Shown piece after piece: positions 18,069-51,487 of a stretch of 64,000 nt of DNA; position 1 is the stretch's first letter; every line of letters starts with the position of its first letter. This DNA is from Phormidesmis sp. (GTDB taxonomy: Bacteria > Cyanobacteriota > Cyanobacteriia > Leptolyngbyales > Leptolyngbyaceae). Under the pieces are notes generated by a model. It made no database searches. It saw only the letters and a program-made list of their open reading frames with translations, and had not been told where the DNA came from. Location: positions 2,208,001-2,272,000 of the forward strand of contig CBDFJR010000005.1 in NCBI GenBank assembly GCA_965248535.1, written 5' to 3'. Made by a program: the position numbers and the translations under genes.

Positions 18069-19616
18069 TCACGCCTCTAGAACAACTTTCCCAATAGGAC
18101 AGGCCACACAGGTTAAGATATAGCCTGCTTCTCGATCGCTCGGCTCTAGGGCTTCCGGTTCTGCATCATAACGGACTTCGCCTTCTAGCTTACGCTTTCT
18201 ACACGACCCACAAATGCCTTGCCGACAATTACTGCGAATTTTGATGCCCTCCTGCTCTGCTAGCTCTAGGATTGATTCTACATCTTGAAACACAGCCTCT
18301 TTTTTAGATTGAGCAAAATAGACGCTTGCTTGGGCCGAGAGTGATTTGGGTGTTGAACTAGGAGGTGAACTAGCTGCTGAATCGAGAGGCGATCGAGGCG
18401 TTATCTGTTGCTGAATAGAATGACTAGCGACATCTGGAGTCGGCACTTGTGGTTTAGTTTTCTTGGGCGCACCAAAGCTTTCCTGATAGTAGTTTTCCAT
18501 CGGAAACCCCAGCGCTTCCAGCATTGTCTTGACTCCTTTCATAAAGTTATCTGGGCCACAGACATAAACTGTGCGCTCCTGAAAGTCGGGTGCGATCGCC
18601 TTCAACATAAATTCTTCCAATCGCCCTGTCCAGCCATACCAGAGTAGACCAGGCTCCTGACGGGTGGTTGACAGCGCAAGACGGAACTTGGGCAAGCGAG
18701 TTGCCATCAGTTCTAATTCCTGTCGAAAAATGACATCTTGTGGCGTGCGAGTGCAATGGAAAAAGACCACATCACAGTCGATCGCAATATCCGCTATCCA
18801 GCGCGACATCGACATCACAGGAGTAATTCCACTACCCGCCGAGATGAAGAGCAGCTTTTGATCAGGCTTAGGGAGACAAACAAACTTACCCATCGCACCA
18901 TTTAACCGAAGCAGAGTCCCCACTTTGAGCGTGTCATGCAACCAGTTTGAGACGAGTCCGGCTGGTAGATTAGAAGAGTCTGGCGCAGCAGGAACTCGCT
19001 TAACGGTAATCTCTAGGACGTGAGGACGAGCAGGAGAAGATGAAATAGAGTAGGAGCGCGAAACTGGCTCACCCTGAATGTTTAACTCTAGAGTCACAAA
19101 CTGTCCTGGCTTGTATTGAAAGAGAACAGGCGGAATAGCCGTAAATGTAAAGGTTTTGACATCAGGCGTTTCATTCGTAATCCGCACACAGCAAACCGTT
19201 AATTCGCCTTTAGTCCAGTAAGGGAGATCTTGTGGTGAGCGATCGTTGTCTTGGTTCGCTTGTTCTGCAACAGCAGGCTGCACCGAGCCTTGTATAGGGA
19301 CTTCTATCGCTGCTATCAAGAGAACAAAGTCGCCAATTCCAACTAAGTCCTCTGGCTTCAAAGGAAAACTTTGATGGGGCTTCAACGCTTGGTTATTGAG
19401 ACGAGAGCCATTCGCACTCCCCAGATCAGTATAGTGATACTGGTTGTTCTGAAATTTAATACTGCCATGCAATCGACTAGCATCTGGACTAATCAGAATC
19501 ACATCACACTCCTCAGTCCGACCGATAACGCATTTACCCTGGGGATGGGTTTCTGGAGTGAGGGTTTTCTGTTGGAATTCACCCGTTTGGTAGTTAAATA
19601 CTTTGAGTTTCAGCAT
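18069..19616 (-). CDS. FHA domain + FNR-type FAD/NAD(P) oxidoreductase + C-terminal 2Fe-2S ferredoxin
   Basis: FHA GR..SRLH..NGS; RSYSISS, SAGSGITP, YVCGP; CRQGICGSC..C. Confidence 0.9.
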   Translation of the reverse strand: MLKLKVFNYQTGEFQQKTLTPETHPQGKCVIGRTEECDVILISPDASRLHGSIKFQNNQYHYTDLGSANGSRLNNQALKPHQSFPLKPEDLVGIGDFVLLIAAIEVPIQGSVQPAVAEQANQDNDRSPQDLPYWTKGELTVCCVRITNETPDVKTFTFTAIPPVLFQYKPGQFVTLELNIQGEPVSRSYSISSSPARPHVLEITVKRVPAAPDSSNLPAGLVSNWLHDTLKVGTLLRLNGAMGKFVCLPKPDQKLLFISAGSGITPVMSMSRWIADIAIDCDVVFFHCTRTPQDVIFRQELELMATRLPKFRLALSTTRQEPGLLWYGWTGRLEEFMLKAIAPDFQERTVYVCGPDNFMKGVKTMLEALGFPMENYYQESFGAPKKTKPQVPTPDVASHSIQQQITPRSPLDSAASSPPSSTPKSLSAQASVYFAQSKKEAVFQDVESILELAEQEGIKIRSNCRQGICGSCRKRKLEGEVRYDAEPEALEPSDREAGYILTCVACPIGKVVLEA

Positions 19617-19666
19617 GAGTCCTAAAGGCAAACGGAAAGTGTATCCATCTCTAAAGTTGAATTATT

Positions 19667-49453: not shown

Positions 49454-49483
49454 GGTTAAACCAATTGTGCAAGTGATTTAGCA

Positions 49484-51487
49484 ATGTCAAACAACAGTCC
49501 TACCCTTTATCTATCCCGCCCGATTCTCCAAATCGGTGGAGCCAATGCTCCTGAAGAGTTGATGAAAGATGTGCTGCAAATCTCAGTTGAAGAAAGCTTA
49601 CATCTACCCGCAATGTTCACATTAGTGATTCACAATGTCTATGTGCCAGGAAGCGATCACAGCGAAGCTTGGCAAAATGAGAAATACTTCAAAATGGGCG
49701 ATCGCGTCTCGATCGGCTTTGTGGGCAGCACCACCGAAGATCCAGAATTTAGTAAAGAACAACAAGAAGATCATTTGATCGAGGGCGAAATTACCGCGAT
49801 CGAAGTCAATTTTACGAAGACCTCTGAGGCTCATCTGGTCATTCGAGGCTACGATGTCTCTCATCGGCTGCATCGAGGGCGCTTTAACCGTTCCTTTCTC
49901 AACGTCACCGATAGCGACATTGTGCGAAAAATTGCGGCTGAAGCTGGGATCTCGATCGCTCAAGTCGATAATAGCGGCGCTCCTCATGATTACGTGTTCC
50001 AAGAGAATCAAACCAACATGGAGTTTTTGCGAGAACGAGCCGCCCGGATTGGCTTTGAACTGTTTGTGCAAAACAACAAGCTTTACTTTCGTCAACCGAA
50101 GAGTGAAACCTCTCTGAGTCTCGATTGGTTAGTGGAGATTAGTAGCTTCAGTGTGCGCGTCACAAGTGCAGAACAAGTCAGTGCAGTTGAAGTACGGGGT
50201 TGGGACTATAGCGAAAAGAAATTGATTCAGGAAACGGCAAATGCTGAAAAACTGGTGACTGCGACTGGAAACGGTAAAGGAAGCCGCACCAGCACAGCGT
50301 TTCAACTTAAAGAGTCACCCAAAATGACGGTGGTTGATCAGCCTATTTTTAGCGCGAGTGAGGCAAAGAAAATGGCGCAGGCGCTCTGTAATGAACTAGG
50401 AGGAGAGTATATTTACGCAGATGCCAAAGCTGAGGGAAATCCAAAAATTCGTCCTGGAGGTGTGGTTGAGCTAAAAGGAATGGGCGATCGCTATAGCGGG
50501 AAATATTACGTTACTGAGACGCATCATCTGTATAGTCAGCGCGTCTACCGCACTGATTTTAGCGTGCGCGGCTTACGAGATGGCAATTTGCTCTCAACCC
50601 TTTCTCCACCCACTCGCCTGCAACCTGGACAAACGCTCATGGTAGGGGTTGTGACGCACAACAGCGATCCGAAAGGCTGGGGGCGAGTTAAGGTCAAACT
50701 GCCCACACTGACCGAAACGGACGAAAGCAATTGGGCAAGGGTCATTGGATTGGGGGCGAGCAACGATCGCGGCTTTTATTGCTTACCCGAAATCGAGGAC
50801 GAAGTACTCGTAGGGTTTGAACATGGAGACATTCATCGCCCCTATGTGATCGGCGGGGTTTGGAACGGGAAAGATAAAACCGTGGAAACCGTAAGTGACA
50901 CGATTCAAAACGGCAAAGTTAGACTACGCACAATCAAAACGAGAACAGGACATACCATTCAATTTGTCGAAGAAGATGCTGCTGGCACTCAAGCAGGAAT
51001 CTACATTACGACAACAGGAGGACATAAAGTTCATCTAACGGATAGTGAAATGGCTAAGGGAGCTAGAATTACCACATCAGGAGGACATAAAGTTCATCTA
51101 ATTGATACACCAGACCCTTCGATCAATATCGAAACGGCTGCAAAACAACATCTCACACTAAACGACGTTGAACTTCTGGTCGATCTTCAGACAGCGGGAA
51201 GAATCAGTGCTGAAGCTGGAATCAATATCAATGTTACTGCACCGACCATCACGATCGAAGCCGAGGCCGATGTGAACATCACATCACCTTTGGTCACGAT
51301 CGAAGCCGAGGCCGATGTGAATGTGGCTGCACTTGCTATCACGATCGAAGGCGGGGCTGATGTGAACATTGCCGCACCTGCTATCACGCTCGAAGCGGCT
51401 GTCGCAATCAACATGGTGGCTCCTATCATCTCGATCGAAGGAGTATTGCTCTCTAATGGAATGCCAGTCATGGTCATCCCCGTTTAA
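49484..51487 (+). CDS. vgrG: VgrG-like spike (Afp8-like)
   Basis: gp27-like hub (YVFQENQTNMEFL), OB fold (GRVKV, LPEIEDEVLVGFEHGD..RPYVIG), beta-helix ITIEAEADVN repeats. Confidence 0.92.
   Translation: MSNNSPTLYLSRPILQIGGANAPEELMKDVLQISVEESLHLPAMFTLVIHNVYVPGSDHSEAWQNEKYFKMGDRVSIGFVGSTTEDPEFSKEQQEDHLIEGEITAIEVNFTKTSEAHLVIRGYDVSHRLHRGRFNRSFLNVTDSDIVRKIAAEAGISIAQVDNSGAPHDYVFQENQTNMEFLRERAARIGFELFVQNNKLYFRQPKSETSLSLDWLVEISSFSVRVTSAEQVSAVEVRGWDYSEKKLIQETANAEKLVTATGNGKGSRTSTAFQLKESPKMTVVDQPIFSASEAKKMAQALCNELGGEYIYADAKAEGNPKIRPGGVVELKGMGDRYSGKYYVTETHHLYSQRVYRTDFSVRGLRDGNLLSTLSPPTRLQPGQTLMVGVVTHNSDPKGWGRVKVKLPTLTETDESNWARVIGLGASNDRGFYCLPEIEDEVLVGFEHGDIHRPYVIGGVWNGKDKTVETVSDTIQNGKVRLRTIKTRTGHTIQFVEEDAAGTQAGIYITTTGGHKVHLTDSEMAKGARITTSGGHKVHLIDTPDPSINIETAAKQHLTLNDVELLVDLQTAGRISAEAGININVTAPTITIEAEADVNITSPLVTIEAEADVNVAALAITIEGGADVNIAAPAITLEAAVAINMVAPIISIEGVLLSNGMPVMVIPV

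Follow-up and report, generated by a model that had tools for sequence, protein, structure and literature searches.

A cyanobacterial contractile injection system related to the cytoplasmic systems of Streptomyces, with candidate membrane-docking and phospho-signalling genes

Introduction

A stretch of 64,000 nucleotides from the cyanobacterium Phormidesmis sp., referred to here as the window, encodes the main locus of a contractile injection system (CIS). Judged from ranked matches and gene content, the system is IId-like and belongs to a lineage that is represented among solved structures by the cytoplasmic CIS of Streptomyces. We assign a probability of roughly 0.6 to the reading that this IId-like CIS is split into a main and a satellite locus, that it comes with a pair of membrane proteins, a four-gene signalling module and, in one branch of the lineage, a kinase and FHA proteins, and that the machine might be docked to a membrane and controlled by phosphorylation. 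The window is identical to C5:2208001-2272000 of genome G000, i.e., the window's own genome; other G numbers denote sampled genomes and L numbers denote fetched loci or regions.

Results

Assignment of the system to a CIS lineage

The genes in the window were called from the listing of open reading frames (ORFs) and by Pfam and NCBIfam scans of 72 ORFs (Table 1), which confirmed the genes named in the original prediction and their positions. The Afp/PVC-type gene set, i.e., sheath, gp19-type tube, VgrG spike, Pvc16 cap and AAA+ ATPase, is present (21734-29096, 45095-51487). As had been predicted, capsid, terminase, TssJLM and ClpV families were not found among the 72 ORFs, nor were portal genes. 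A chance grouping is not at issue, as dozens of genomes have these families in each other's company. The system had been addressed as an Afp/PVC-related CIS; this holds insofar as the locus encodes a CIS and no phage head, but among solved systems the cytoplasmic CIS of Streptomyces come closest. The window's sheath matches the Streptomyces CIS sheaths 8bky and 8bl4, structure codes that both occur in PMC10066040, over the full length (residues 5-552, E 2e-122, 412 bits). The archaeal sheath 9ezm reaches 307 bits, and Anabaena All3325 (7b5h), Pvc2-4, Afp2-4 and AlgoCIS are matched in the C-terminal domain only (104-183 bits). For the cap protein Pvc16A, a match to a Streptomyces CIS was obtained as well, to cap chain 9gts_0A (E 2.8e-14). 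The VgrG_rel score of the spike protein lies above the cut-off, and the third tube-family gene matches CIS5_fam with 5.4e-20, below the NCBIfam cut-off.

The CIS locus in the window is incomplete. Neither gp25 nor Baseplate_J, P2_I or PAAR was found in the window by Pfam scans and a genome profile search, the latter of which placed Baseplate_J at C5:2348413-2348934 on the same contig. There, about 86 kb downstream of the window's VgrG gene, a satellite operon encodes gp25, Baseplate_J (Cis11), a P2_I domain protein and a Cis13-like protein, and four further signalling genes, described below, are likewise located in this satellite locus. The satellite Baseplate_J protein scores 1.9e-197 with TIGR02243 and matches the Streptomyces Cis11 chain 9gtp_1K with E 3.7e-125 and 422 bits, whereas the match to AlgoCIS reaches 1e-4 only. 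The co-occurrence of these genes was determined in 401 cyanobacterial genomes, in which sheath orthologs were accepted at an identity of at least 59% along almost all of the query, whether in one piece or in two. The 28 genomes with this sheath lineage (CIS+) were compared with 34 other genomes (62 in all). Of the 28 CIS+ genomes, 27 have Cis11 orthologs (at least 49% identity), whereas none of the 34 others has one in full length; the exceptions are G234, in which Cis11 was not found, and G092, in which it is found in three pieces. Since the Cis11 orthologs thereby track the sheath lineage, the satellite baseplate can be assigned to the system of the window. The Cis12-like protein of the satellite operon has 363 residues, no transmembrane segment was found in the Cis13-like, P2_I and Baseplate_J proteins, and a sequence search of the PDB with the Cis13-like protein gave no match.

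According to the available text of PMC6899500, subtype IId shows a single contiguous afp8/VgrG ORF and a single afp11, and IId loci in a Calothrix strain are on record. The contiguous VgrG gene and the single Cis11 of this lineage are both found in G000. Moreover, P2_I and Cis13-like genes are present here; as afp12 and afp13 are described as absent from "most" IId loci in the same text, membership is thereby not excluded.

A conserved pair of paralogous membrane proteins

A block of FHA, kinase, WD40 and Ig-like membrane genes within the structural run had been interpreted as an embedded signalling module. The block is present and spans 9.5 kb (33271-42817, encoding an FHA protein with a methylglyoxal-synthase (MGS)-like domain, the WD40 and Ig-like proteins, a second FHA protein and a Pkinase protein), but its WD40 and Ig-like genes represent a conserved membrane pair that ends the baseplate operon in related genomes. 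In the AlphaFold2 (AF2) models, the WD40 protein consists of three beta-sandwich domains (residues 1-345), a helix and a propeller (mean predicted local distance difference test score, pLDDT, 88), and the Ig-like protein of three beta-sandwich domains (residues 1-365), a helix and three further beta-sandwich domains (pLDDT 83). For both models Foldseek returned only generic tandem Ig-like and WD40 folds (7-bladed WD40 structures). Comparing the two family profiles by hhalign gave a probability of 98.9% (E 1e-17) over 389 columns covering the N-terminal domains and the helix; by this profile match the two proteins are paralogs with different outer domains. The mid-chain helices, one per protein, are strongly hydrophobic with scores of 2.95 and 2.32, and neither protein has an N-terminal signal peptide. 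Cysteine columns conserved to at least 90% pair only after the helix (620/640 in one protein, 464/473 and 574/584 in the other). Because the cysteine pairs are exclusively C-terminal and a signal peptide is lacking, the N-terminal arms are probably cytoplasmic and the C-terminal domains would face the periplasm or a lumen.

The Ig-like protein has hundreds of cyanobacterial homologs, which are named only "COG1470 family" or "hypothetical". To these homologs 80 loci were fetched with up to 10 kb per side, 50 of them with full flanks (at least 9 kb on both sides), and the proteins of the window and the satellite were mapped by tblastn. In 77 of the 80 loci the Ig gene is immediately preceded by the WD40 gene, and the remaining three have less than 2.3 kb of upstream sequence. 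At least one CIS gene is found within 10 kb of the Ig gene in 48 of the 80 loci (28 of the 50 with full flanks), and the modules neighbouring the pair occur in many different orders. Across the 401 genomes, the Ig gene is present in 28, a full-length sheath ortholog in 28 and both in 27, distributed over 10 families. The exceptions are G248, with a weak Ig match of 29% identity and no sheath, and G092, with sheath and Cis11 in pieces and no Ig gene. Thus, the linkage of FHA, kinase, WD40 and Ig-like genes to CIS genes that had been proposed as a synteny check holds in other cyanobacteria. Furthermore, 20 regions from 15 genomes, a non-random sample picked for an Ig gene near Cis11 or the sheath gene on one contig, revealed the order gp25-Baseplate_J-P2_I-Cis13-like-WD40-Ig in 9 of the 15 genomes, gp25 being lost at a contig end in one of the nine. 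In L035 the order is CIS_tube-VgrG-gp25-Baseplate_J-P2_I-Cis13-like-WD40-Ig, with gaps of 5-10 bases between the last three genes. Because the WD40 and Ig genes end the baseplate operon in relatives, the pair occupies the tail-fibre/CisA position, the site after the baseplate genes being that of the CisA gene in Streptomyces (PMC12237407, available text). The gene orders and counts show the pair to be a lineage-wide, conserved element, encoded last in the baseplate operon of relatives. When Ig-like domains one and two of each membrane protein were modelled in a complex with the Cis13-like protein, the score was 0.25, the mark being 0.32, which weighs neither way.

Signalling genes linked to the system

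The kinase encoded in the block shows VAIK, HRDLKPDN, DFG and SPE motifs, and from these intact catalytic motifs it is likely to be active. It has no transmembrane segment, and its C-terminus carries six 14-residue repeats (42 base pairs (bp) x 6.1 at 42445-42699, in frame). All three FHA domains of the window keep the GR, SxxH and NG residues for binding of phosphothreonine (pThr); in the long FHA protein the motifs read GR, SRNH and SSNG, and its MGS-like domain matches a methylglyoxal-synthase-like family with 4.8e-21, below the NCBIfam cut-off. Beside the 80 loci 28 kinase ORFs were found, of which 24 (in 20 loci) match the window's kinase best within G000, with 344-469 bits vs. 176-209 bits for the runner-up kinase of G000, and four match another one. 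All 20 loci with kinase orthologs belong to the 48 loci with CIS genes, and none to the 32 loci without. The kinase gene is divergent from the Pvc16B-AAA module in L039, L041, L048, L064, L068 and L072, and follows the Ig gene in the same run in L035. Orthologs of the short FHA protein (321-325 residues, about 50% identity) adjoin the AAA gene in L020, L022, L023 and L024, and full-length orthologs of the long FHA protein follow DUF6760 in Nostoc-type sheath operons. Ser/Thr kinase and long FHA protein are thus shown, on the basis of their orthologs, to mark a sub-lineage that includes this genome; in this branch the kinase is accompanied by one or by two of the longer FHA proteins. In L035 (positions 12267-19377, Cyanobacteria bacterium FACHB-63), the Ig gene is followed by genes for a trypsin-like protease, the kinase ortholog, an OprB/SLH porin, a COP23-like protein and a second trypsin-like protease.

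The closest relatives, L007, L045 and L049, encode Ig-like proteins 57-61% identical to that of the window. There, the Ig gene is followed by genes for a histidine kinase, a GerE response regulator, a PBP-ended protein of about 700-750 residues, an FHA protein (170-179 residues) and the kinase ortholog, which in L007 and L045 is preceded by a gene for a 329-residue protein (Tll0287-HAMP in L007). The corresponding four-gene module of G000, encoding a histidine kinase, a GerE regulator, a PstS-like membrane protein and a small zinc-ribbon FHA protein, is separated from the satellite baseplate operon by 6.4 kb, in which a CHAT-TPR NTPase gene is located. The PstS-like protein is built of a zinc ribbon, an N-terminal domain of weak kinase likeness (Pkinase E 0.0058, below the cut-off), in which the HRD aspartate motif reads HGN, the sequence RKRRRR followed by a transmembrane helix (335-359), and a PstS-like outer domain (Atlas score 0.91). 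Its orthologs are present in 24 of the 28 CIS+ genomes and in none of the 34 others. Usually a few kb separate its gene from that of the sheath, and the two frequently lie on opposite strands (G260, G368, G162, G137, G208); the module often sits beside the cap-sheath operon in relatives. The PstS-like protein together with the two-component pair and the small FHA gene is thereby shown, by ortholog distribution, to be lineage-wide.

GerE regulators with histidine kinases are known neighbours of extracellular CIS (eCIS; PMC8213781, available text), and this part of the module is therefore not new. The membrane pair, the PstS-like/FHA module and the link to a Hanks kinase and FHA proteins are not mentioned in the available texts, supplementary tables excluded, of PMC8894136, PMC12237407, PMC6899500, PMC8213781, PMC12923769 and PMC12998442, and a full-text search for literature joining "contractile injection" with FHA, kinase, WD40 or cyanobacteria returned nothing relevant. 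As far as these texts go, the membrane pair and the kinase, FHA and PstS-like partners are undescribed for such machines.

Putative cargo and further structural genes

The original prediction of polymorphic cargo was supported: the two DUF4157 proteins are 78% identical over about the first 300 residues including HExxH and show no similarity thereafter. For the C-termini no family was recognised in Pfam and NCBIfam, and the Atlas search with the second one gave sub-threshold leads of at most 0.88. A shared N-terminus combined with a variable C-terminus is described for eCIS-associated toxins (PMC8213781, available text), and by this build both proteins are putative polymorphic cargo.

The two small paralogous genes that adjoin the tube genes had been called chaperones. 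This designation found no support, as Pfam, NCBIfam and PDB searches, the last with the 119-residue protein, gave no match for them; copies of 61-81% identity follow the tube genes in 18 of the 80 related loci (tblastn), and the DUF6760 gene is also found in 18 of the 80. The 1065-residue protein encoded upstream of CIS_tube is without match in Pfam, NCBIfam and PDB searches. Its conservation is restricted to the last 35-120 residues, upstream of CIS_tube in L089 and L101, and its gene contains an in-frame tandem repeat at 47460-47792 (111 bp x 3). From its position only, it is a possible length ruler. The run had further been described as co-oriented, which applies to the plus-strand CIS genes; it is cut into three units by the minus-strand DUF2442 (32619-32951) and TetR (42893-43591) genes. 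The tautomerase, TetR and DUF2442 genes inside the run are unrelated to CIS, and for the TetR and DUF2442 genes, as for a six-transmembrane gene (44247-44768), no counterparts were found in 100 loci.

Table 1. Genes of the main locus, its neighbours and the satellite locus in G000 (C5, contig coordinates; all other positions refer to the window).
Feature	Position	Strand	Evidence or remark
FHA-FNR-2Fe2S gene	18069-19631		divergent from cap gene
Multi-pass membrane Fe-S-like gene	19667-21475		divergent from cap gene
Cap Pvc16A (Cis16-like)	21734-22579	+	Pfam Pvc16_N 9e-19; C-terminal CarboxypepD_reg beta-sandwich
Sheath (Cis2-like)	22634-24295	+	Pfam sheath domains
Inner tube gene 1	24341-24793	+	Phage_T4_gp19 2e-32
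Inner tube gene 2	24855-25370	+	Phage_T4_gp19 3.6e-31
Two paralogous small genes, no known family	25508-25867, 25833-26240	+	adjoin tube genes
DUF6760 small protein	26237-26389	+	PF20546 2.1e-15
Second cap gene Pvc16B, frameshifted	26462-26755 and 26776-27108	+	Pvc16_N
AAA+ ATPase (Cis15-like) with winged-helix domain (WHD)	27024-29096	+	AAA 8.6e-25, WHD 1.5e-18
DUF4157/eCIS_core gene 1, HExxH	29139-30350	+	eCIS_core 5.9e-33
Small zinc-ribbon ORF between DUF4157 genes	30521-30772
DUF4157/eCIS_core gene 2, HExxH	31057-32592	+	eCIS_core 6.7e-33
Long FHA protein, acidic repeat linker, C-terminal MGS-like domain	33271-35232	+	FHA 3.5e-13
WD40 protein: three Ig-like domains, predicted transmembrane helix 351-368, seven-bladed propeller	35577-37763	+	AF2, Foldseek
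Ig-like protein (COG1470 family): three Ig-like domains, predicted transmembrane helix 369-392, three Ig-like domains	37776-39983	+	AF2
Short FHA protein	40127-41113	+	FHA 1.2e-13
Hanks-type Ser/Thr kinase	41186-42817	+	Pkinase 8.6e-47
Third tube-family gene (Cis5-like adaptor)	45095-45691	+	gp19 1.6e-34; TIGR02241 2.3e-37
1065-residue low-complexity protein	45713-48910	+	C-terminus conserved
Tube initiator CIS_tube (Cis7-like)	48944-49453	+	PF19266 7.8e-22
VgrG spike, contiguous, 667 residues, one ORF	49484-51487	+	Phage_base_V 1.7e-26; NCBIfam VgrG_rel 9.7e-106
Four-gene module, outside window	C5:2334693-2339328 (L107:10693-15328)		57-66% identity to relatives
Satellite operon gp25, Baseplate_J, P2_I domain, Cis13-like/DUF4159	C5:2345753-2350781	minus	Pfam, NCBIfam

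Neighbouring genes and a second CIS

The FHA-reductase operon had been noted as divergent from the first gene of the run. The arrangement stands, but the two genes are independent of the CIS in other genomes. Orthologs of the membrane Fe-S-like gene occur in 18 of the 62 genomes (7/28 CIS+ and 11/34 others), i.e., with and without this CIS, and never near CIS genes, and an FHA-bearing partner adjoins it in G308 and G038. The pair was accordingly rejected as a CIS part and is, judging by these orthologs, an independent two-gene unit and an unrelated neighbour. A paralogous FHA-reductase/membrane Fe-S pair is located at C2:813030-815214 in G000.

The window also carries, upstream of the CIS locus, a regulator cluster (9044-17732) with a GAF-GerE gene, a HisKA_3 kinase and GerE regulator, a lone receiver and a Crp-family gene. 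This HisKA_3 kinase/GerE pair (13568-15522) was considered as the CIS regulator and rejected as an ortholog of the conserved module, with 37-39% identity to the CIS-linked genes of relatives vs. 64-67% for the satellite copy. Likewise rejected was a kinase-GUN4 gene divergent from the satellite operon, which is matched in 4 of the 80 loci and in none of the 20 regions. A COP23 gene lies close to the satellite baseplate in G000. Just after VgrG, at 51747-51922, a 63-bp unit is repeated 2.8 times with 98% matches; it makes an 88-codon ORF of three hydrophobic 21-residue repeats, which is probably not a gene.

On contig C2 of G000 (about 518400-537000; L004:385-18668), a second, contiguous CIS locus was found. 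It contains a sheath gene, two tube genes, CIS_tube, gp25, Baseplate_J and a gene for an 843-residue P2_I protein, and its spike is split into GPD and base_V as separate ORFs. Judging by these genes, it belongs to a lineage different from the window's system, and its sheath match is not like that of the thylakoid-anchored CIS (tCIS) of Anabaena either. A third DUF4157 gene lies at C2:545256-545486.

State of the second cap gene

Within Pvc16B, positions 1-67 and 84-170 of the Pvc16_N profile lie in different frames, and the shift falls within 26713-26752. Contigs from two public runs stop at 26726/26729 and at 26720, i.e., inside this interval; over 24000-32000 the contigs of public runs show no indel row at the frameshift but simply end. 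As two runs have contig ends at this very site, the break could go back to polymorphism or to faulty assembly, or else it may be real.

Discussion

Proposed mechanism and alternative explanations

According to the proposed explanation, the particle would assemble in the cytoplasm and the cytoplasmic Ig-like arms of the membrane pair would dock its baseplate to a membrane, while the outer propeller, Ig-like and PstS-like domains would report on the envelope or the medium. Threonine phosphorylation read by the FHA proteins would gate assembly, docking or firing, like PpkA and Fha1 in the T6SS (type VI secretion system), and the GerE regulator would set transcription. By analogy with CisA and with the T6SS phosphorylation pathway, docking by the pair and control of assembly or firing via pThr and FHA domains both appear plausible. 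The machine might fire at the producer, as in Streptomyces and Anabaena, or at a neighbour, and the evidence favours neither.

Several observations weigh against this explanation. The topology of the pair is deduced, and the positive-inside count at the transmembrane helices is neutral (1.2 vs. 1.4, and 2.5 vs. 2.1). Moreover, in 22 of the 50 full-flank loci, mostly from Nostoc, the 10 kb around the pair contain no CIS gene at all. Nor do kinase and long FHA protein occur throughout: in a survey scoring at most 23 kinase candidates per genome, kinase orthologs (at least 350 bits) were found in 10 of the 28 CIS+ genomes and in 2 of the 34 others (G180, G035), and the long FHA protein occurs in 9 of the 28 and in 1 of the 34 (G180). 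Neither kinase nor FHA matches were obtained in any of the 20 fetched regions, and no PP2C phosphatase was found among the ORFs scanned in the window. With respect to the subtype, IId loci are said to carry PAAR (afp10; PMC6899500, available text), whereas PF05488 gave no match in G000. As Pvc16B is frameshifted in the assembly, this copy of the system may not be functional. Furthermore, related genomes are not independent, and the co-occurrence counts overstate the number of independent events.

If the system were an ordinary released eCIS, the WD40 and Ig-like proteins would be the equivalents of tail-fibre or receptor-binding proteins, and kinase and FHA proteins would regulate expression or be bystanders. 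The position of the pair at the tail-fibre site, after Cis12 and the Cis13-like gene, would fit, as would the beta-propeller and Ig-like or macroglobulin-like folds that occur in eCIS fibres (PMC12923769, available text) and the GerE regulators with histidine kinases next to eCIS genes (PMC8213781, available text). We nevertheless see only a slight chance for it: each pair protein has one strongly hydrophobic mid-chain helix that is modelled as transmembrane, neither has a signal peptide or an N-terminal shaft for attachment to the baseplate, the Cis13-like protein is encoded by a separate upstream gene, and the nearest solved relatives, by the texts available, act inside the cell. A membrane-anchored, contact-dependent weapon in the style of a T6SS, with the pair as membrane complex and firing directed outward into neighbours, is unlikely, too. 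Control by a Ser/Thr kinase and an FHA protein is a T6SS trait, as known from PpkA and Fha1, and two polymorphic DUF4157 cargo genes suggest antagonism. No TssJLM, ClpV or outer-membrane-spanning trans-envelope component was found among the scanned ORFs, no immunity genes were identified beside the DUF4157 genes, and the closest solved systems are cytoplasmic; on the other side, the sheath matches archaeal 9ezm with 307 bits, and for haloarchaeal CIS the T6SS mode was predicted from a conserved membrane protein specific to the lineage (PMC11566945, available text).

That the system is a decaying, scattered remnant in this genome, with its signalling genes recruited to other tasks, we consider highly improbable. 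In its favour, Pvc16B is frameshifted only here, its orthologs in related loci being open in one frame in 21 of 21 cases. The baseplate operon has come to lie apart from the main locus and has a CHAT-TPR gene and a transposase fragment close by, the run is interspersed with TetR, tautomerase and DUF2442 genes that do not belong to it, and G092 provides a case in which sheath and Cis11 are in pieces and the Ig gene is missing. Yet every other CIS gene here is full length in comparison to relatives, the contigs of two runs break at the frameshift site, which may thus reflect polymorphism or assembly error, and dispersal of the modules is usual in the lineage even with all genes intact, as in G260 with 2.5 Mb between sheath and Ig gene. 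The positions on the single contig in question are 6.18 Mb for the sheath gene, 3.68 Mb for the Ig gene and 2.28 Mb for the kinase gene, and also in other large Nostoc-type genomes (G206) the parts of the system are far apart. Going beyond the split, IId-like CIS favoured here, the lineage might form a distinct class of cyanobacterial CIS, in which the paralogous transmembrane pair is the docking site and the PstS-like receptor pseudokinase, the FHA readers and a branch-specific active kinase turn an envelope or nutrient signal into firing, a class that would have evolved independently of the T6SS phosphorylation pathway. We put this forward tentatively, as a possibility short of even odds.

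Implications

To our knowledge, CisA is the only adaptor known so far in Streptomyces, and its signal is not known. What tells cytoplasmic CIS when and where to fire is an open question, for which this lineage offers conserved candidate parts, i.e., two membrane adaptors, a ligand-binding receptor-like protein, FHA readers, a kinase and a GerE regulator, as well as culturable carriers among Nostoc, Calothrix and Chroococcidiopsis strains. The rearrangement in the window puts kinase, FHA and membrane genes between the structural modules and thereby exposes the link. Moreover, CIS genes can be scattered over megabases and yet be kept as a set, and for this reason locus-based catalogues will miss or truncate such systems.

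Comparison with known systems

The threonine phosphorylation pathway of the T6SS consists of PpkA, Fha1 and PppA. As here, a Hanks kinase and an FHA protein with intact motifs are genetically tied to a contractile machine. Unlike in that pathway, TssJLM, TssBC and ClpV are missing here, no PP2C gene is present among the window's ORFs, the kinase lacks a transmembrane segment, and the link is one of gene neighbourhood and confined to a sub-lineage.

In haloarchaeal CIS (PMC11566945, available text), as in the lineage described here, a lineage-specific conserved membrane protein co-varies with the CIS clade, and the sheaths are related at 307 bits. The haloarchaeal anchor has six transmembrane helices and a cytoplasmic domain of 150 residues in contrast to the bitopic, Ig-armed pair found here, and VgrG is split in the haloarchaeal type of lineage (PMC6899500, available text) and contiguous here. 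The tCIS of Anabaena PCC 7120 (subtype Ib) shares, according to the texts available, the cyanobacterial host and a cap with two Pvc16 paralogs, and the proposed logic of membrane attachment via products of the baseplate module is common to both. Differences are the sheath match, which covers the C-terminal domain only (183 bits), the Cis12 protein of 363 residues, which lacks the 610-1100 extension, and the Cis13-like protein without transmembrane helix, the anchors being encoded by separate genes here; tCIS is characterised by that Cis12 extension, a transmembrane domain in Cis13 and a crown of Cis19.

The CIS-Sc of Streptomyces coelicolor (IId) provides the best solved matches for the window's sheath and cap and for the satellite Cis11. 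In the Streptomyces mode of action, the particles lie free in the cytoplasm, and firing under stress, which requires CisA, kills the producer. Both systems have a contiguous VgrG and a single Cis11, and neither has a conventional tail fibre. Furthermore, the gene for CisA, a bitopic membrane protein, follows the baseplate genes as the WD40 and Ig genes do here, and the substrate-binding-like C-terminal domain of CisA is resembled by the PstS-like outer domain, a likeness by description only; both points go back to the available descriptions of CisA. In the main text of PMC12237407 the words "FHA" and "kinase" do not appear. According to that text, CIS-Sc differs in having one adaptor with a disordered N-terminus, as opposed to two paralogous adaptors with folded Ig-like arms here. 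In addition, unlike in CIS-Sc, a WD40 propeller and Ig-like repeats form the outer domains, the gene set includes Cis12 and Cis13-like genes, and the system comes with a Hanks kinase, FHA proteins and a two-component pair. If the tentative reading as a distinct class is true, the Streptomyces death machine would have a relative here that is docked to a membrane and gated by phosphorylation.

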